Origin: Escherichia phage AV124
Length of the DNA stretch: 64,000 nt
Sequence record: OR352954
Direction: 5' to 3' (one strand)
Part shown: positions 1,331-18,073 of the stretch, one piece after another
Position numbering within the stretch: the stretch's first letter is position 1
Layout of the letters: every line of letters starts with the position of its first letter
Position numbers and translations under genes: made by a program
Notes under the pieces: generated by a model
Seen by the model: only the letters and a program-made list of their open reading frames with translations
Databases searched by the model: none
What the model was told of the DNA's origin: nothing

Positions 1331-1541
1331 ATCGGTTTTTGTCATCTATGACACTGTTGACAAATGCCTCTGGAACCACAAAGCCAAGATTGGGTGGATT
1401 AGTTCCGGCGCGGCGAAGAACGCCTGGAATCTTGCCCACGCAACCTGGAGTGGGAAGCAGTATTTTGATGACCAGCAAAGATATGTAGTTCTTGAGCTTT
1501 CTGGCGGACACGTTAGTAAATTATTTGAGGAGAATAAATGA
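1323..1541 (+). CDS. hypothetical protein
   Basis: ORF with ATG at 1323 overlapping upstream stop (ATGAGTAA); translationally coupled small early gene. Confidence 0.3.
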   Translation: MSKSVFVIYDTVDKCLWNHKAKIGWISSGAAKNAWNLAHATWSGKQYFDDQQRYVVLELSGGHVSKLFEENK

Positions 1542-1894
1542 CCATGAATGAATCTGTAGATTCTGCAACCACCCCAATGATCGGTGGTAAGATTTACGCT
1601 GGCGTTATCATCAACGCCCGTCCGTTTGTGGAGGTATGGCCCCGTTGTATTTGTGGTTATCTGGCTGGCAAGGATCATCACAACCGAGGGTTTGATAATG
1701 GCCCTATTCGTACCTCCACGGTGCAAAGCCTGCTGCTGGAGAATGGTAAGCTATTCGCCATCACACTGAATAGCGCTTATCGCCTAGAATCTGTAGATCT
1801 GGCAGCTTTTCTTAATTGTCCTGGGTGGTTCGATGACCTTGATAATTTGATCACTCAGGCTGTAGCTCCTAAAAAGGGGGTGTCCATTGACTAA
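1538..1894 (+). CDS. hypothetical protein
   Basis: ORF track, 118 aa, start overlaps upstream stop. Confidence 0.4.
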   Translation: MTMNESVDSATTPMIGGKIYAGVIINARPFVEVWPRCICGYLAGKDHHNRGFDNGPIRTSTVQSLLLENGKLFAITLNSAYRLESVDLAAFLNCPGWFDDLDNLITQAVAPKKGVSID

Positions 1895-2930
1895 ACCAAT
1901 TAAATACCCAAGCACCGCACAGTTCCGTCAGGTTATCCGCACCATGCATGATAAACTGACGTTCGACGGTCTTGATGAAGAAGGCAATATCAAGCGTAAG
2001 GTTTTGCCACCGGACGCATACTTGATCCCGTACATTGGTACGGTTAAGCTCCACGGCACAAATGGTAGCGTGGTATTCCACTCTGAGGATGAAGTTGTCT
2101 TCCAGTCCAAAGAGCGTGTCGTTACTGTAGGTGACGATAACAATGGCTTCGCGGCTTTCATGTCTCGAAAAGACACCTCAGAGCTGCTTTCCCAGGTTAA
2201 ATACCTGTGTGAAGTCAATGAAGTTGAGTTCCAGTTCCCGGTTGAAATTGCTGGTGAATGGGCTGGTCGCGGCATTCAGAAAGGTGTTGCCATCACTGAA
2301 GTAGAGCCATTCTTTGCTATCTTCCGTGTGGCTGTAGGCCGGGATGAGGCGACGGATACCCTCAACTGGCTACCACCAACGTTCCAGTTTGGAATGGGAT
2401 TGCCGGATGCTCGTATCTACAGTATCCTTGACTTCGGTTACTGGATGGCTAATATCCCATTCAATGAGCCAGAACTTGTCCAGAATGACTTGGCAGAACT
2501 GACTCGTGAAGTGGAAAACAAATGCCCGGCAGGTAAGTTCTTTGGCGTAGAAGGTATCGGTGAAGGCATTGTCTGGTCTCCAAAAGATCCTGAGCTTTCT
2601 AAAATCTCTGGTCTGTGGTTTAAAGTCAAGGGTGATAAACATTCTGTATCCAAAGTTAAGACCCTGGCAGCGATCGACCCAGAACGCCTCGCAAGTATGC
2701 GTGAGTTCGTTGAGTACGCTGTGACGGAAGCACGTCTTGAGCAGGGTGTTAGCGAAGTCGGTCTTGACCAGACTAAGATTGGTGAATTCATTGGATGGAT
2801 TAACCGAGACATCAACAAGGAAGAGGGTGATGTTCTGGAAGCCAGCTCCATGACCATGAAAGATGTTGGTAAGTTTATCAGCAACAAAGCTCGTGCATGG
2901 TACATGACTCGTCTGAGTGAGGAGGGCTAA
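1887..2930 (+). CDS. ATP-dependent RNA ligase, Rnl2-like
   Basis: Nucleotidyltransferase motif I 'VKLHGTN' (cf. T4 Rnl2 KIHGTN), 'EGIVWSP' and 'FKVKG' downstream motifs; N-terminus 'KPIKYPS'; TTG start after GGGGG SD. Confidence 0.7.
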   Translation: MTKPIKYPSTAQFRQVIRTMHDKLTFDGLDEEGNIKRKVLPPDAYLIPYIGTVKLHGTNGSVVFHSEDEVVFQSKERVVTVGDDNNGFAAFMSRKDTSELLSQVKYLCEVNEVEFQFPVEIAGEWAGRGIQKGVAITEVEPFFAIFRVAVGRDEATDTLNWLPPTFQFGMGLPDARIYSILDFGYWMANIPFNEPELVQNDLAELTREVENKCPAGKFFGVEGIGEGIVWSPKDPELSKISGLWFKVKGDKHSVSKVKTLAAIDPERLASMREFVEYAVTEARLEQGVSEVGLDQTKIGEFIGWINRDINKEEGDVLEASSMTMKDVGKFISNKARAWYMTRLSEEG

Positions 2931-3112
2931 TGGCCCTCATTGTAGCCACAACGCGGTCTGTTGAAAAAAGACCTGGACATTCTTTCACCGAGTGTGATAC
3001 CTTGATTTTCGAAGATGAAGAACAGGGAAAAAAGTTTGTTAAAGATAACAAACAGTTTGTCTATAATGTCCAAAAAGCGAGGGTCATTAAAAATGGTGAG
3101 ACCAGAACCTAA
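2930..3112 (+). CDS. hypothetical protein
   Basis: ORF track, 60 aa, ATG overlaps ligase stop. Confidence 0.25.
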   Translation: MALIVATTRSVEKRPGHSFTECDTLIFEDEEQGKKFVKDNKQFVYNVQKARVIKNGETRT

Positions 3113-3278
3113 GTTTAAAGTCGGGCAGACAGTCAAAGATACCTGGAGCGGCAAGGTTGGCCCTATTTCCACCATGTACTTTTCAGAAGGAGACCAGTAC
3201 AACAAGGCAGAATGGGCATATTCTATAGACCATATCGGGTGGTTATTCCATCCAGAGTCTGACTTGGAGTCGGTGTAA
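3093..3278 (+). CDS. hypothetical protein
   Basis: ATG at 3093 in frame of track ORF 3015..3278. Confidence 0.25.
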   Translation: MVRPEPKFKVGQTVKDTWSGKVGPISTMYFSEGDQYNKAEWAYSIDHIGWLFHPESDLESV

Positions 3279-3697
3279 TGGGTCTTCGTGAATACTTAGC
3301 AGTCAAATTAAAACATGCAAAGGGGCAATCTATGGTTAAAGTGAATGGTAATACCATCACGATCAACGGGAATACCGTCGTTAATGGTGACATCATTGGT
3401 GGAGACTTGAGTATTTCTGCAAATGGGGATAAAATCCTCATCAACGGAAAAGAGGTCTATACCACTTCTGATAAAAACATTACCGTAGTCATCCACGGAA
3501 ATACAGGAAGCATAAACACCACATCTGGTGGTGTGAAGGTGTATGGCACAGCAGGTAATGTTAAGACTGTTTCTGGTGATGTCCGTATCGAAACAGGGTC
3601 ACTTGCAGATGTGACTACCGTCTCAGGAGATGTTATAGCAGAAACCATTGAAGGTAATGTGAAAACAGTTTCAGGAGATGTTTCTCACCGTCGTTGA
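3278..3697 (+). CDS. beta-solenoid repeat protein (DUF4097/bactofilin-like repeats)
   Basis: Tandem degenerate repeats 'VKTVSGDV' / 'GNTITINGNTVVNGD'; alternative start ATG 3332 with AAGGGG SD. Confidence 0.4.
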   Translation: MGLREYLAVKLKHAKGQSMVKVNGNTITINGNTVVNGDIIGGDLSISANGDKILINGKEVYTTSDKNITVVIHGNTGSINTTSGGVKVYGTAGNVKTVSGDVRIETGSLADVTTVSGDVIAETIEGNVKTVSGDVSHRR

Positions 3698-3739
3698 TAT
3701 ACAGCCCCATTATGGGGCTTTTTAATTTGGAGTGTAAAT

Positions 3740-4270
3740 TTGAAATTGAAAAATATGATTTTGGCAACCGCCTGTATCCTTTCTCTGACTACCACACCTG
3801 TCTTAGCCAAAGAAAGTGTAAAGAAGCCCAAAGTTATCCATCTTTGTAAGAAGGATGACACAGCGGTAAACATTTTAGCCTGCAACATGTACAAAGAAGC
3901 TCGTGGAGAGAGTGATTCCGGGTTAATGTCGATCGCATTCGTAACTTTGAATCGTAAGGATAACGATAAGTACCCTGGAACAGTAAAGAAGATCGTCTAC
4001 CAGCCCGGACAATTCTCCTGGACATCTTCAGGAACAACGTTTAAAGTCTATGAAAAGGATCGCTGGGAGAAGGCACAAGAGTTTGCAAAAGTTCTGATCA
4101 AGATTCATAAACAAAACAGGGTCGTCTACGATGCTCTGGACATAACACATGGAGCAACCCACTACCATTCACGAAAAGTAAAACCCTACTGGACAAAGGC
4201 CATGCTACGCACAGTCAGGATCGATAACCATATCTATTATAAAGAGAAAGAAGATTCTCAGGGGGCATGA
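3740..4270 (+). CDS. secreted SleB-like cell wall hydrolase (signal peptide)
   Basis: N-terminal 'MKLKNMILATACILSLTTTPVLA' signal peptide; 'YKEARGESDSG...VTLNRKD...IVYQPGQFSW' resembles Hydrolase_2/SleB catalytic domain. Confidence 0.55.
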   Translation: MKLKNMILATACILSLTTTPVLAKESVKKPKVIHLCKKDDTAVNILACNMYKEARGESDSGLMSIAFVTLNRKDNDKYPGTVKKIVYQPGQFSWTSSGTTFKVYEKDRWEKAQEFAKVLIKIHKQNRVVYDALDITHGATHYHSRKVKPYWTKAMLRTVRIDNHIYYKEKEDSQGA

Positions 4271-13877: not shown

Positions 13878-13933
13878 TACCAACTGAGAGGTGGGCGACG
13901 GTACAGTCTAGCCCACTTTGAATAGGAGGAATC

Positions 13934-16306
13934 ATTAAAGGTCTGTTTATACTGGATAACGAGGCCGATGGCCTGTTAGACGAAGTAACTAAGTACCATT
14001 GTACTTTGCTGAAAGAATTCGGAGTCAACAACTGGAACCTGTTTTTAGACCCCGCACACCCTGAATATGAAAGCGCTGTAGCCTTTGCCAGGAGCAAGAA
14101 GGATGCTAATCTTACAATTCGTTCATACGACGAGCTGGAAAGCTTCCTGAAGACTTGTAGAGCCATTGCGTGTCACAACCTGTTTGGTTATGACCTGCGC
14201 CTGTGGAAGAAGTTATCGGGCATTGAATATGATATGTTCAAAGACCCGAAGTGCATGGGGACGATTGGGGATACACAGGTAAATCTCTACGACACCCTCT
14301 CTATGAGCCGTGTGCTTTATCCTGACCGTCCATTACCTAACGGTTGCCCTGACTCTGTTCTTAACCCGGTAACCGGGAAGCGAGACCGTGTAGGTCCTCA
14401 TGGCCTGTTGGCCTGGGGCTACCGCGTAGCAAACAAGAAAGTTCAGATCGATGACTGGCGTAACCAACCCTTGTGGGAATACGTTAATCGTGTCTGGGAA
14501 GACGTTTTAATCAACGAGTTAGTATGGCAATCCCTGATCGATGAATCTACAGGTGCTCGCTGGCCTGATGACAAGCAGTTCATGTACAAAGATAAACCGG
14601 AAGGGATGCGGCAGATCAACTGGAAGAACGCGCTACGCCGCCGTATGTTGACTGATTACCTGATGATTGAGCAAGAAATTCAGGGTGTTCCATTCAATAA
14701 GCATGAAGCTGAAAAGCTGAGAGACCGTATTGATGTAATGATGAAAGAGATTGAGGAAGAAGTAGAACCTCAACTCCCGCTCAAAGAGATGACGAAGTCT
14801 CAACAGCCAAAATTCCCTGCTAATCCTTTTGATGGTGCAGGAAGAATTTCCCATCACGGGTGGAATTGGTTAGAATACAAGCTGGGATATCCAGTTAATC
14901 GTGAAGCGCTGGAATTCAAAGGTCCACCGAAGACGGCGTTTAAAGGTAACGGTGATGTAAGTGCAGCAGGGGAAAGATACTGTATCCAGAATGGTGTTGA
15001 AGACCCGGCAGCGATGCCAGACTTCATTAGAAGCCAGATAAAGAAAGAGAATACCCTTGTCCCATTGCCACCAGACCTAATGGAAAAGGCAATTGCCGAT
15101 CTTCGTGCTGGAAAGATGCCAGACCTGATGGTTCCGATGAAGATCTCGAACCAGGACGACATCAAGAAGTACCTGATCCGCGATGCGGGATGGAAACCAA
15201 CGCTCTGGCGTGTTAAAGATGTGACGAAAGACCAGTTCAAAAAGACCCGCGATGATGCGGAGGTTGATGGTCTGGTGCGTAAGTACATCGAAGAACTTGG
15301 AGAGTCCGAGTATAAATCTCTGATTCTTGAGCACTTAAATAATAGTGACGCAAAGTTCAATATCTCGGAAAACAAGTTCGACCATCGTCATGGTTCTGAT
15401 CGTGTTTACGAGGAGGTCTTCAAGAAGTTCCGACGCAAAGCTCGTCAACTGCCGACTTCACCACAGTTGAAGGATAACTTTGGCAAGCTGTGTCCTAACC
15501 TTGAAGTTATCGATGTTCACTTGGCTAAACAGATTGTTAAGTGGCTGTCATTACGTAACCGTCGTTCTGTTCTCGACCCTATTGACGAGGATAAAAACGA
15601 TACAGGGCTGTTGAATCATCCTCGCCTGGCGATTGATGGAAAACTTCCAGCTCGTTTCTCTGGTATCACTAACACCGGGCGTTGTAAGCACACCATTTGT
15701 GCAAACATGCCTAAGCCAGATCCTAAGGTGTTGTTGGGTAAAGAGATGCGTGGTCTCTGGGGTGTGACCGATGAATATTACCAGGTCGGTATCGATGGTT
15801 CTAACCTCGAAGGTATGATCGCGGCATGGGGTGCATATCAGTTCGATGGTGGTGAATACCTCCGTATCATGGAAAGTGGAGATGCCCACGCACGAAACGC
15901 CGAGGCATACACCAAAGCTTCTGGTACTCTGGTAACGCGTAACGGTGGTAAAGGGGTAACCTACGGCATCATGTATGGTGCTCAGGCAGCTAAGATTGCA
16001 GCAATGCTTCACATTTCCCTTGACAAGGCACAGGCGGTAATCGATGCTTTCTGGGATAGTAACTTTGGTTTGAAAGGTCGTAAGGAATGGCTTGAAAACT
16101 TCTGGGAAGCAACGGGTAAACGTTATATCCCTGGTCTCGATGGTCGTAAGATTTGGACCCGTTCTAAGCACTCTCTTCTGAATGCTTTCCAGCAAAACGG
16201 TGGTGCATCTCTATTCGATCTGGTTGGTATCCTGCTTCACTGGGAACTGATCAAACGTGGCTGGTATGATGATGACGTTCGTCGCCTGATTTACTACCAT
16301 AAATAA
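13934..16306 (+). CDS. DNA polymerase, family A, T7 gene 5-like; N-terminal segment (3'-5' exo + motifs A and B), ends just before motif C
   Basis: Exo I 'FILDNEADGLLDEVTKYHC' (cf. T7 'IVSDIEANALLESVTKFHC'), 'GPHGLLAWGYR', motif A 'GIDGSNLEG', motif B 'KGVTYGIMYGAQ'; no ATG/GTG/TTG between upstream TGA (13919) and Exo I, so start set at ATT 13934 after AGGAGG. Confidence 0.75.
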   Translation: MKGLFILDNEADGLLDEVTKYHCTLLKEFGVNNWNLFLDPAHPEYESAVAFARSKKDANLTIRSYDELESFLKTCRAIACHNLFGYDLRLWKKLSGIEYDMFKDPKCMGTIGDTQVNLYDTLSMSRVLYPDRPLPNGCPDSVLNPVTGKRDRVGPHGLLAWGYRVANKKVQIDDWRNQPLWEYVNRVWEDVLINELVWQSLIDESTGARWPDDKQFMYKDKPEGMRQINWKNALRRRMLTDYLMIEQEIQGVPFNKHEAEKLRDRIDVMMKEIEEEVEPQLPLKEMTKSQQPKFPANPFDGAGRISHHGWNWLEYKLGYPVNREALEFKGPPKTAFKGNGDVSAAGERYCIQNGVEDPAAMPDFIRSQIKKENTLVPLPPDLMEKAIADLRAGKMPDLMVPMKISNQDDIKKYLIRDAGWKPTLWRVKDVTKDQFKKTRDDAEVDGLVRKYIEELGESEYKSLILEHLNNSDAKFNISENKFDHRHGSDRVYEEVFKKFRRKARQLPTSPQLKDNFGKLCPNLEVIDVHLAKQIVKWLSLRNRRSVLDPIDEDKNDTGLLNHPRLAIDGKLPARFSGITNTGRCKHTICANMPKPDPKVLLGKEMRGLWGVTDEYYQVGIDGSNLEGMIAAWGAYQFDGGEYLRIMESGDAHARNAEAYTKASGTLVTRNGGKGVTYGIMYGAQAAKIAAMLHISLDKAQAVIDAFWDSNFGLKGRKEWLENFWEATGKRYIPGLDGRKIWTRSKHSLLNAFQQNGGASLFDLVGILLHWELIKRGWYDDDVRRLIYYHK

Positions 16307-17275
16307 CATTGTGGCTTTGTGAGGTAACTCACATCGAATAACTCCTTTAATTGCTGGGAGGCTAAGGTTGATATTCACTCGATAATAGAGTAAAATACAA
16401 CTATGTTAATCAGCAGCGAAGAGGATCAATGAAAAGTGTAAACTACCACGGATATGTGGTTTACGAAGACGGAACCATTATCGGAAGGCGCGGGAAACCG
16501 ATGCAAAAGGTAGATAATGGGAGGGGCTACCTAATTGTAAGTCTCTACCTTAATAAAAGAACAACGACAAAAGCTGTGCATGTTTTAGTGGCTGAGTGTT
16601 TCGTTCCCAACCCGGATAACCTCCCAGAGGTTGACCACAAGGATGGTGATAAGACCAACAACCACTACACCAACCTCCGCTGGGTAACAAGAGGTAAGAA
16701 CATAGAACATTGCTACACGTTGGAAGGTAGAAGTGCAACAGGTATTGCCAATGCAAACAGTAAGTTGTCAGAGGGAGAAGTGGAGAAAATCTGCTACCTC
16801 TTGCAGGAAGGCTTTAGTCAAGCTGCCATCCGAGACATGGGCTACCCATACGGAACAGTTAGGGCCATCAAGCAGAGACGACAATGGCTGCATATATCAT
16901 CTTCGTATCATTGGTCTTAACGTTCAGAGGCCAGCCGAAAGGCGTAGACGAGCGAGTGCCGTCGAAATGGGGAGCATCCTGAAAAGGATGGTGATATGGT
17001 CCGATCCTACGTGAAAACGTATGGCAACACGTAATGGTGTGGGCGAGATTAACGACCTCGCTAAACTTTTGGATGAATACCAGCTCCAGGTTCCTAAGAA
17101 ATACCTGAAGAAGTGGGAGTTCGACACCCTGGAAGAGGCAACAGCTTTCGTCAAAGAATGGGAAGCAAAAGGCCGGGTATTTGACGGACATGAATGGAGA
17201 AAGGCCGTCAAAGATGACAACGGTGATAAAGTCAAGGATGCGGAAGGCAATACAGTCTACGAAGGTATTTTCGGG
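16301..17275 (+). mobile_element. insertion interrupting the DNA polymerase gene; candidate group I intron carrying an HNH endonuclease ORF (alternative: gene-splitting homing cassette)
   Basis: Polymerase frame stops at 16304-16306 where motif C is expected; conserved C-terminus resumes downstream; possible P1 pairing CCAU(16297-16300)/GUGG(16311-16314); in-frame G-terminated 3' site at 17275. Confidence 0.3.
16429..16920 (+). CDS. HNH homing endonuclease
   Basis: 'VHVLVAECFV...VDHKDGDKTNNHYTNLRWVTRGKN' HNH_3-type motif; C-terminal HTH-like segment. Confidence 0.75.
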   Translation: MKSVNYHGYVVYEDGTIIGRRGKPMQKVDNGRGYLIVSLYLNKRTTTKAVHVLVAECFVPNPDNLPEVDHKDGDKTNNHYTNLRWVTRGKNIEHCYTLEGRSATGIANANSKLSEGEVEKICYLLQEGFSQAAIRDMGYPYGTVRAIKQRRQWLHISSSYHWS

Positions 17276-17419
17276 GACGATGGTAAAATCCACATCCAGT
17301 ATTGCCCTGTTGGTGAAATGGTCGTAAGATGTGTAGAGAAGGCCGCTCGTATCATGGGCAGTCCTGTACATATCACAGGGGCATATCTTACGGGCGCCAA
17401 TTGGGCGCAATGTCATTGA
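17021..17419 (+). CDS. DNA polymerase C-terminal segment (motif C region to C-terminal His)
   Basis: 'IQYCPVGEMVVRCVEKAARIM...ANWAQCH*' matches T7 DNAP C-terminus '...IQVGC..EEIAQVV...NWAICH*'; first ~85 codons lack polymerase similarity. Confidence 0.6.
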   Translation: MATRNGVGEINDLAKLLDEYQLQVPKKYLKKWEFDTLEEATAFVKEWEAKGRVFDGHEWRKAVKDDNGDKVKDAEGNTVYEGIFGDDGKIHIQYCPVGEMVVRCVEKAARIMGSPVHITGAYLTGANWAQCH

Positions 17420-17437
17420 TATATAAGGATATTTTAT

Positions 17438-18073
17438 ATGGAATTATGGAAAGACATCCCCTCTACGGAGGGGAGATACCAAGTAAGTAATTATGGAAGA
17501 ATAAAAAGGCAACGGTATTCTCGCATAAACAGCAATCAAGCAGCAAGTTGGGAGCAAGTATATGAAACAAAGATATTAAAGCCTTCAAAGGACACACACG
17601 GTTACCTACAAGCTTGTTACCTTGTGGAAGGAGAGAGGACTATAGCCCTGGTCCATAGGCTTGTTGCAGAAGCCTTCCTTGCACCGCCAAGTCAAGAGTT
17701 GATAGATGAATGTATGAAGGCTGGTCACAAAGTGGTTCTTGTCAACCACAAGGATGGAAACCCACTTAACAACCATGTTGACAACCTTGAGTGGTGTACT
17801 CCTTCTTACAACAATGAGTATAGTCCCCAAGATTATTCAAATAGGTCTGGGGATAACTGTAAACATGCGGTTCTTAAAGAATCTGATGTTGACAAAATAC
17901 TGGAACTACGTGGTAAAATGAGTCAGCAGGCCATCGCGGATATGTTCGATGTGAAACAGATCACTATCAGCAACATTTTCACCGGAAGGTCTTGGTCTTC
18001 TTATACCGGAATACCTCGCAAAGAGCGTAACAAAGGAAAACGTGCAGCTAAGACCAAACTGTTATCACAATAG
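17438..18073 (+). CDS. HNH homing endonuclease (NUMOD4-like N-terminus)
   Basis: 'WKDIP..EGRYQVSNYGRIK' then 'VHRLVAEAFL...VNHKDGNPLNNHVDNLEW'. Confidence 0.7.
   Translation: MELWKDIPSTEGRYQVSNYGRIKRQRYSRINSNQAASWEQVYETKILKPSKDTHGYLQACYLVEGERTIALVHRLVAEAFLAPPSQELIDECMKAGHKVVLVNHKDGNPLNNHVDNLEWCTPSYNNEYSPQDYSNRSGDNCKHAVLKESDVDKILELRGKMSQQAIADMFDVKQITISNIFTGRSWSSYTGIPRKERNKGKRAAKTKLLSQ

Follow-up and report, generated by a model that had tools for sequence, protein, structure and literature searches.

A mobile group I intron of subgroup IA2 very probably splits motif C of the DNA polymerase gene of Escherichia phage AV124

Results and discussion

The polymerase gene and its interruption

The 64-kb stretch of Escherichia phage AV124 analysed here (record OR352954, 64,000 nucleotides; hereafter the window) carries a family-A, T7-like DNA polymerase ORF. 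Positions 16301..17071 are very probably a self-splicing and mobile IA2 group I intron, which separates the His codon from the Asp codon in the catalytic HDE motif (motif C). The type of intron is already known, being a selfish element seen before in close relatives, where splicing has been demonstrated; the case is an ordinary one and settles no open question. An interrupted polymerase had been recognised in the original prediction, and the arrangement it described is real: the polymerase ORF stops at 16306 (...RRLIYYHK*), an HNH ORF follows at 16429..16920, and a 132-aa ORF at 17021..17419, whose final residues are ...ANWAQCH, encodes the C-terminus of the polymerase. In Pfam searches the first ORF matched DNA_pol_A and the middle one matched HNH_3. 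Two details of that description need correction. The break had been placed just before motif C, but it lies inside the motif, between the His and the Asp-Glu of HDE; and the last ORF is polymerase only from 17072 onwards, while 17021..17071 is intron RNA (P9, P9.1 and P9.2). The parts of the gene are as follows.

13934..16300, plus strand: DNA polymerase exon 1, collinear with the KpS8 polymerase up to 16300; its final codon is the motif C His codon CAT (YYH)
16301..17071, plus strand: very probable IA2 group I intron of 771 nt, identified by exact insertion relative to intronless KpS8, by Rfam RF00028 and by covariation
17072..17419, plus strand: DNA polymerase exon 2, opening with GAU GAA (motif C Asp-Glu); stop codon at 17417-17419

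The intron boundaries follow from an intronless allele. In KpS8 both parts of the polymerase form one ORF (880 aa as annotated) with the junction YYHDEYQLQ, and this protein aligns without a gap over 16300|17072, yielding ...RRLIYYH|DEYQLQV... and restoring motif C exactly, which confirms the proposed 5' splice site after U16300. The T7 DNA polymerase likewise aligns straight over the junction of the spliced protein (yyHDEyqlqv against wvHDEiqvgc, E 6e-17). The joined exons would thus encode a single polymerase of 904 aa, ...YYH|DEYQLQ..., with a predicted mass of about 104 kDa. The insertion point corresponds to site 881 of E. coli Pol I, the His of HDE, a designation taken from PMC3428280.

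The polymerase frame is open from 13922, the codon at 13934 is ATT, and the first canonical start, TTG 14006, lies downstream of Exo I (FILDNEADGL). The non-canonical AUU at 13934, preceded by the Shine-Dalgarno (SD) sequence AGGAGG at 13924-13929, is the likely start. The polymerase is an essential, single-copy gene. For annotation, the value of the analysis is that one gene should be recorded, the join of 13934..16300 and 17072..17419, and that the start at 17021 is spurious; most database records file the polymerase as two or three 'DNA polymerase' CDSs plus an 'HNH endonuclease'. The record of BASEL phage AlexBoehm has a polymerase CDS joined around this intron, and the genome paper of rV5 mentions an intron for the terminase only.

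Covariance-model search

The covariance-model search proposed in the original prediction was run, and the group I family RF00028 of Rfam matched the window at 16291-17023 with 39.3 bits (E 6e-8). The 497-nt ORF insert in P6a explains why this score falls short of the gathering score of 50; ORF-less homologues at the same insertion site reach 64.7-75.6 bits, above the gathering score, and the Vibrio relative reaches 76.1 bits. At the gathering threshold, Rfam returned zero matches in the entire 64-kb window; under a permissive scan of the same sequence, the group I intron was the sole RNA family matched. A search of the window for tRNAs found none. Together with the KpS8 allele and the covariation described below, this match bears out the intron model.

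Ribozyme fold and covariation

We aligned 13 homologous sequences with MAFFT and compared pairing within the proposed helices with two controls, namely slid partners and 500 shuffles. The alignment supports the helices P1-P9.2, and with them the P3/P7 pseudoknot: 96.1% of cells pair, as compared with 33-42% for slid partners. Both sides have changed in 34 of the 62 pairs, and none of the 500 shuffles reached the observed values. P4 and P5 pair less cleanly (85.5%) because MAFFT misplaces a bulged nucleotide of some homologues. The elements of the fold, all on the plus strand, are listed in 5' to 3' order.

16297..16314, plus strand: P1, exon CCAU and intron AA (16297-16302) with the internal guide UUGUGG (16309-16314)
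16319..16332, plus strand: P2 hairpin GUGAG-GUAA-CUCAC; both-side changes in 5 of 5 pairs among homologues
16342..16347, plus strand: P3 5' strand CUCCUU, partner GGGGAG at 16969-16974; 4 of 6 pairs compensatory, 100% of cells pair
16352..16415, plus strand: P4-P5 domain; P4 16352-57/16410-15, P5 16360-62/16405-07, extended P5 hairpin 16366-16402
16416-18, plus strand: P6 5' strand GCG, pairing with CGU at 16921-23
16422-31, plus strand: P6a 5' strand AGGAUCAAUG, holding the HNH gene's SD and AUG; partner CAUUGGUCUU at 16909-16918
16929-33, plus strand: P7 5' strand GGCCA, partner UGGUC at 16997-17001; 100% of cells pair, one compensatory pair
16934-43, plus strand: P7.1, GCC-GAAA-GGC, followed by the linker GUA at 16944-46
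16947-63, plus strand: P7.2, GACG-A-GC-GAGU-GC-CGUC; 4 of 6 pairs compensatory
16975-90, plus strand: P8, CAUCC-UGAAAA-GGAUG; 4 of 5 pairs compensatory; followed by J8/7, GUGAUA
17008-21, plus strand: P9, containing ATG 17021, the spurious start of a second polymerase part
17027-40, plus strand: P9.1, from the covariation alignment
17043-61, plus strand: P9.2, followed by the tail UAAACUUUUG, with omega-G 17071 as its last nucleotide

The pairing of CCAU (16297-16300) with GUGG (16311-16314) had been predicted from the sequence and stands: P1 is invariant or compensated in the 13 homologues, the Vibrio homologue having the compensated pair CGAU/GUCG. The wobble pair at the 5' splice site, U16300.G16311, is invariant in all 13, as is omega-G. 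A possible P10 joins CAUU (16307-16310) to GAUG of exon 2 (17072-17075), and the 3' boundary ...UUG|GAUGA is common to all homologues. The subgroup assignment rests on two additional helices, P7.1 and P7.2, which lie between P7 and P3' and are linked by GUA, the arrangement given in PMC3428280 as the IA2 signature; the window has GCCGAAAGGC-GUA-GACGAGCGAGUGCCGUC at 16934-16963.

In the proposed mechanism, the pre-mRNA would fold into P1-P9.2 with U16300 held in P1 by the guide UUGUGG, and a guanosine would attack after U16300. The released exon 1 would then attack after omega-G 17071, aided by the 4-bp P10, and the exons would be ligated, with a predicted junction ...UACUACCAU|GAUGAAUAC... and the junction-spanning peptide LIYYHDEYQLQVPK. 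The intron begins AAAUAA, with an in-frame stop two codons in, and ends with omega-G 17071. If splicing failed, translation would halt at this stop (CAU AAA UAA); the unspliced product would be devoid of the catalytic Asp-Glu, and replication would therefore need splicing. Splicing in AV124 is predicted from its sequence; for the homologous intron of CB7 (CB7_50, flanked by the polymerase parts CB7_49 and CB7_51), RT-PCR and Sanger sequencing established splicing in vivo (PMC7344957).

The HNH gene and its putative promoter

16429..16920, plus strand: HNH homing endonuclease gene, 163 aa, in the P6a loop; Pfam HNH_3, E 4e-10

Although first described as free-standing, the HNH gene sits within the loop of ribozyme helix P6a. 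Its ORF is full length and includes the catalytic motif. Among solved structures, the nearest is I-HmuI (1U3E, E 2e-9), with DHKDG..NN..NLRWVT conserved, and the product is 55-76% identical to those of the HNH genes of PBES02, A5-4 and FV3, all of which occupy the same loop. If the enzyme behaves like I-HmuI, I-BasI, I-TslI and I-PfoP3I, it would nick polymerase alleles that lack the intron, close to the insertion site, in a mixed infection, and repair would then copy the intron into such an allele (homing); both the activity and the target of the endonuclease are attributed by analogy with these enzymes.

Both the SD and the AUG of this gene would be buried in the P6a stem (duplex energy -12.4 kcal/mol), and in the homologues every unrelated insert is flanked by equivalent closing stems of differing sequence. 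Inside the extended P5 hairpin, at 16368-16396, lies a sigma-70-like site, TTGATA-17-TAAAAT. A promoter scan of the region gave three sites against 4.7 expected from shuffles, with no excess, so the site merits mention for its conservation across variants and not for the scan count: every ORF-bearing variant retains the motif, although the spacers have diverged, and three compact ORF-less variants lack it. The PVP-SE1 record annotates a promoter at this spot. The P5 site may transcribe the HNH gene.

Alternative explanations

We weighed three other readings of the region. The first, which we regard as highly improbable, is a split polymerase, in which the insertion would remain unspliced and the polypeptides of 13934..16306 and 17021..17419 (about 89 and 15 kDa) would assemble after translation, as in the NrdA of Aeromonas phage Aeh1 split by mobE or in the non-splicing CB7_245. 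The second part would begin MATRNGVGEINDLAKLL / MATRNGVGEINDLAK, and its in-frame ATG at 17021 comes right after an in-frame stop; the database records listing two or three separate 'DNA polymerase' CDSs agree with such a split, and related phages do have non-splicing HNH insertions (PMC7344957). However, it would part the His from the Asp-Glu within catalytic motif C, and it leaves a complete, covariation-conserved ribozyme unexplained. The supposed start lies in the P9 3' strand and has no SD, the substitutions within 17021-17071 compensate one another in RNA stems, and in the rV5, FV3 and SPA01 branch a stop codon interrupts the frame 8 codons ahead of the junction, which means that the N-terminal extension lacks conservation. 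Splits of the Aeh1 NrdA/mobE type go with the absence of a ribozyme and a conserved second start, whereas here a ribozyme is present and the ATG is not conserved. The splicing of the homologous CB7 intron (PMC7344957) also argues against the two-cistron arrangement, which had been offered as the alternative to an intron and finds no support here.

A decayed intron, with a non-functional ribozyme or HNH gene and a polymerase that is a pseudogene or helper-dependent, is more improbable still. Relatives have decayed, as in the SPA01 HNH gene, frameshifted after 19 codons, and in the loss of the ORF from several lineages; against this, the core helices in the window are all intact, the HNH ORF is full length with its catalytic motif, the polymerase gene is essential and single-copy, and the intron sequence is identical in at least ten independently isolated, viable phages.

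The 3' splice site first proposed, after G17275 (intron 16301-17275, giving ...YYH|DDGKIHIQYC...), can be practically dismissed: it is in frame, follows a G and yields an 'HD' dipeptide, but it would remove 68 conserved codons, and it is refuted by the intronless KpS8 allele, whose homology resumes exactly at 17072 and which retains 17072-17275 as contiguous coding sequence (92% identical), as well as by the ending of P9.2 and omega-G at 17071 in 13 of 13 homologues (...UUG|GAUGA) and by the 17071|17072 junction, which restores an HDE aligned with that of T7.

Comparison with known introns

The self-splicing IA2 intron proposed here has a close counterpart in the CB7/phiTE (Pectobacterium) polymerase intron (Buttimer et al. 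2020, PMC7344957), in phages that share the subfamily Vequintavirinae with AV124. The insertion site is the same (TACCAU|AA.UAACAUUGUGGC ... UUG|GAUGA) and the ribozyme backbone is alike, with 90-94% identity in its 5' and 3' parts. The cargo differs, however: the CB7/phiTE HNH gene begins in P5, and its 127-aa product shares only about 35% identity, over 95 aa, with the 163-aa protein of the window, which is encoded wholly in P6a.

Other similar systems are the self-splicing introns of SPO1, SP82 and Bastille (I-HmuI, I-HmuII and I-BasI), which are also IA2-type, lie in phage DNA polymerase genes and encode nicking HNH enzymes, but which belong to phages infecting Gram-positive hosts and are located at Pol I 674 (fingers; PMC3428280). 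A further parallel is provided by PhiI and W31 (AY769989, AY769990; I-TslI), described by Bonocora & Shub 2004 as summarised in PMC3428280: like the window intron, theirs are IA2 introns at Pol I 881 in a family-A phage DNA polymerase, with an HNH ORF in P6a, P7.1 and P7.2 joined by GUA, and a short P10. The window shows both the YYH|DE junction and the ORF between the P6a strands, so the likeness is one of described features. The PhiI and W31 phages are podoviruses, whereas the window belongs to an rV5-like myovirus. The T4 td intron is reportedly another phage IA2 intron, with the I-TevI ORF looped out of P6a, a ribosome-binding site occluded by RNA structure and an internal promoter; it differs in its GIY-YIG enzyme and in its thymidylate synthase gene, and the promoter and ribosome-binding-site occlusion of the window are putative.

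Distribution and mosaicism

The 771-nt intron is 100% identical in SSE121, GEC_vB_MG, K45PH128C2 and K54_rec1-6, and the same sequence occurs in at least ten independently isolated, viable phages. Identical copies span phages of Klebsiella (Mydovirus) and Salmonella (Seunavirus), and a copy in a Cronobacter phage is 98.8% identical. When compared with SSE121, identity extends for 15 nt into the upstream exon and for 33 nt into the downstream exon, after which the exons diverge by about 15%. One genus includes alleles with the intron, with an ORF-less intron and with none; another version occurs in the polymerase of a Pseudomonas Pakpunavirus, and a relative in an SSB-like gene of a Vibrio phage. 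The mixture of intron-plus and intron-minus alleles in one genus, the identical copies across host genera and the limits of identity within the exons lend indirect support to nicking of the intronless allele and to homing. The cargo also varies: two HNH lineages are placed in P6a or P5-P6, a LAGLIDADG gene lies in P7.1, and several lineages are ORF-less, while in SPA01 the HNH gene is frameshifted after 19 codons.

We consider it possible, though doubtful, that a single IA2 chassis at Pol I site 881 is now circulating across genera and hosts and has been repeatedly colonised by unrelated endonuclease genes; under this reading, each ORF may arrive with a sigma-70-like promoter in P5. If this were true, these phages would offer an unusually complete natural series with which to test both the invasion of an existing intron by endonucleases and homing across genera. 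The case illustrates two known points, namely that homing introns single out the best-conserved catalytic codons in essential phage genes and that they make the sequence around their insertion sites mosaic. Such mosaic flanks matter for phage phylogenies and for the engineering of therapeutic Klebsiella phages.

Directly 3' of the polymerase gene, and outside the intron, lies a further gene that is missing from KpS8 at that position.

17438..18073, plus strand: free-standing homing-endonuclease-like gene (NUMOD4, HNH_3 and HTH), from Pfam

Location and boundaries of the intron

Motif C of this phage family-A DNA polymerase is interrupted by a group I intron of subgroup IA2, which carries an HNH homing endonuclease gene. 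The phage belongs to the rV5-like subfamily Vequintavirinae, genus Mydovirus (Klebsiella phage), and several genomes of this kind match the region at 95-99% identity. Both the ORF list and the raw sequence confirmed the layout described in the original prediction:

ending at 16306: polymerase part 1 ORF (...RRLIYYHK, stop), Pfam DNA_pol_A
16429..16920: middle ORF, 163 aa, Pfam HNH_3
17021..17419: polymerase C-terminal ORF, 132 aa, ending ...ANWAQCH

The polymerase gene of phage KpS8 is uninterrupted, and BLAST comparison with it yielded two collinear blocks, 13900-16300 (KpS8 locus 1501-3901) and 17072-17420 (locus 3902-4250). Because these are contiguous in KpS8, exactly 771 nt are inserted in the window, at 16301..17071. 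In motif C (HDE), the insertion separates the His codon from those for Asp-Glu; spanning this junction, the KpS8 protein has the sequence ...RRLIYYHDEYQLQVPKK.... Conceptual splicing gives a 904-aa polymerase whose best solved relative is that of T7, which aligns straight over the junction (yyHDEyqlqv in the spliced protein, wvHDEiqvgc in T7; E 6e-17). The original prediction had placed the 5' splice site correctly; its 3' site at 17275 was rejected, since it would remove 68 codons that the intronless allele retains. The main use of this finding is a corrected gene model, join(13934..16300,17072..17419).

Ribozyme structure and covariation

The Rfam scan of the 64-kb window returned a sole RNA family match, to the group I model (16291-17023, 39.3 bits, E 6e-8), with a score below the gathering value of 50 bits because a 497-nt insert must be bridged. 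ORF-less homologues at the same site exceed this threshold (VLCpiM5b, 69.8; SYGMH1, 75.6; JLBYU08, 72.5; rV5, 64.7 bits). All homologues share the 5' end TACCAU^AA(A/G)UAACAUUGUGGC and the 3' end ...UUG^GAUGA (carets mark splice sites). P1 includes a U16300.G16311 wobble, and a 4-bp P10 is possible between CAUU (16307-10) and GAUG of exon 2.

Covariation was tested on 13 aligned, ORF-trimmed cores by scoring a hand-built structure comprising P1, P2, P3, P4, P5, P6, P7, P7.1, P7.2, P8, P9, P9.1 and P9.2, including the P3/P7 pseudoknot. Across these cores, standard pairs occupied 96.1% of cells, compared with 33-42% when the 3' partners were slid by 1-3 columns, and both sides had changed in 34 of the 62 pairs; the observed covariation values were reached by 0 of 500 shuffles. 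The intron proposed originally is thus upheld by the exact insertion relative to KpS8, the Rfam match and the covarying fold. Two of its helices are joined by a GUA linker:

16934-43: P7.1
16947-63: P7.2

The P7.1-GUA-P7.2 arrangement is the signature assigning phage introns to subgroup IA2 (PMC3428280).

The HNH gene as intron cargo

The HNH gene, first described as free-standing, is located between the two strands of P6a and is intron cargo. The stem pairs AGGAUCAAUG (16422-31), which includes the SD and AUG of the gene, with CAUUGGUCUU (16909-18), immediately 5' of its stop, at -12.4 kcal/mol; in every homologue a closing stem surrounds its own, different insert (-5.0 to -17.3 kcal/mol). 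The encoded protein is related to I-HmuI (1U3E, E 2e-9), the nicking endonuclease from the SPO1 polymerase intron, and keeps its catalytic DHKDG...N...NLRWVT motif. A promoter-like site precedes the gene:

16368-96: sigma-70-like site TTGATA-17-TAAAAT, within the P5 extension

Taken alone, this site is not above chance. All variants that bear an ORF have the pattern TTGAYA-N16/17-TAnnnT, with a diverged spacer, and three compact introns without an ORF lack it. In the PVP-SE1 record a promoter is annotated at the corresponding spot; the site in the window is a putative promoter.

One spliced product or two cistrons

The original prediction also allowed a polymerase made as two cistrons, with part 2 translated from ATG 17021. 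This reading is not supported: the split would cut the catalytic triad, and the ATG lies in the P9 3' strand without an SD. In rV5, FV3 and SPA01 a stop codon lying 8 codons short of the junction closes the part-2 frame, and within P9.1 and P9.2 the variation across 17021-17071 is compensatory. Read-through from exon 1 ends at CAU AAA UAA in all variants, so unspliced RNA would yield an enzyme lacking Asp-Glu.

Evidence for intron mobility, and allele distribution

Salmonella phages SSE121 and GEC_vB_MG share the 771-nt intron with the window at 100% identity, as do Klebsiella phages K45PH128C2 and K54_rec1-6; in Cronobacter phage Csp-D17 it is 98.8% identical. Identity to SSE121 is perfect only from 16286 to 17104, the first mismatches lying 15 nt before and 34 nt after the intron, and drops to ~85% outside. 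Three kinds of allele coexist in Mydovirus: intron-minus (KpS8, KB57, KPP-1, BIS47), ORF-less (VLCpiM5b, KP12) and HNH-bearing. Relative to KpS8, exon 2 (17072-17419) differs by 8.6% and the last 900 nt of exon 1 (15401-16300) by 0.9%; together with the 16286-17104 identity block, this divergence is consistent with a mosaic from gene conversion next to the site. Cargo varies among homologues:

Cargo of homologous introns (coordinates of extracted loci)
PBES02, A5-4, FV3: HNH, 55-76% identical to the window HNH
phiTE, CB7: unrelated 127-aa HNH, starting in P5
PVP-SE1: LAGLIDADG gene in P7.1 of the same ribozyme (L016 704-1622)
Pseudomonas phage SPA01 (Pakpunavirus polymerase): HNH frameshifted, broken after 19 codons; site AYH^DEAQ, the same H^DE (L018 1090-1881)

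At the level of sequence, allele distribution, identity blocks and varied cargo are evidence of intron mobility.

Comparison with known introns

For a homologue of this intron, which carries the HNH gene CB7_50 and separates polymerase parts CB7_49 and CB7_51, RT-PCR and Sanger sequencing demonstrated splicing during infection (Buttimer et al., PMC7344957), and the record of BASEL phage AlexBoehm already joins the polymerase CDS from two pieces around the intron. The introns of T7-like phages PhiI and W31 also belong to IA2; they lie at Pol I site 881, the His of HDE, and their HNH ORF is in P6a (PMC3428280). By that description their insertion position is that of the window intron, whereas the SPO1, Bastille and Pf-WMP3 introns occupy site 674 (PMC3428280). 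Novelty is therefore low, as earlier records already cover the element and where it is inserted, and a close homologue had been shown to splice.

Polymerase start and neighbouring elements

The polymerase frame is open after the TGA stop at 13919-21. Its first canonical start, TTG 14006, comes only after the codons for the Exo I motif FILDNEADGL. An SD, AGGAGG (13924-29), precedes ATC ATT AAA, so the polymerase probably starts at a non-canonical AUU, 13934. The corresponding position is ATA in SSE121 and a normal ATG in Vequintavirus AlexBoehm. Database records place the CDS start at the TTG, losing Exo I. The interval separating the primase/helicase stop from the polymerase SD holds a hairpin rich in G+C (GUGGGC...GCCCAC, then UUUGAAU; 13890-13917), which could be a terminator or processing site; AlexBoehm has a comparable hairpin in the same place.

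A free-standing homing-endonuclease-like gene (NUMOD4 + HNH_3 + HTH, 211 aa; 17438-18073) lies 18 nt past the polymerase stop, where KpS8 has an unrelated 531-nt gene, and in K54_rec2 an additional HNH gene separates the primase/helicase gene from the polymerase gene. In the relatives KpS11, K54_rec, SSE121, phiTE and CB7, polymerase motif B holds a second group I intron, with a different HNH (VTYG^IMYGA; Rfam 39.1 bits; L002 3524-4195, L003 3568-4282); this site is empty in the window (15966^15968).

Vibrio phage 1.187.O has a related ORF-less group I intron (L017 1625-1932; Rfam 76.1 bits; 3' half ~72% identical) in an SSB-like gene, four codons before the stop. Splicing of exon 1 (...PPMDFDD) to exon 2 (DIPF, stop) would restore an acidic SSB tail; its record annotates the gene as ending inside the intron. 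The polymerase intron of the window also occurs in 14 GenBank entries labelled 'Campylobacter phage' (MG0656xx) whose genomes are rV5-like, which hints at a mistaken host name or at contamination.
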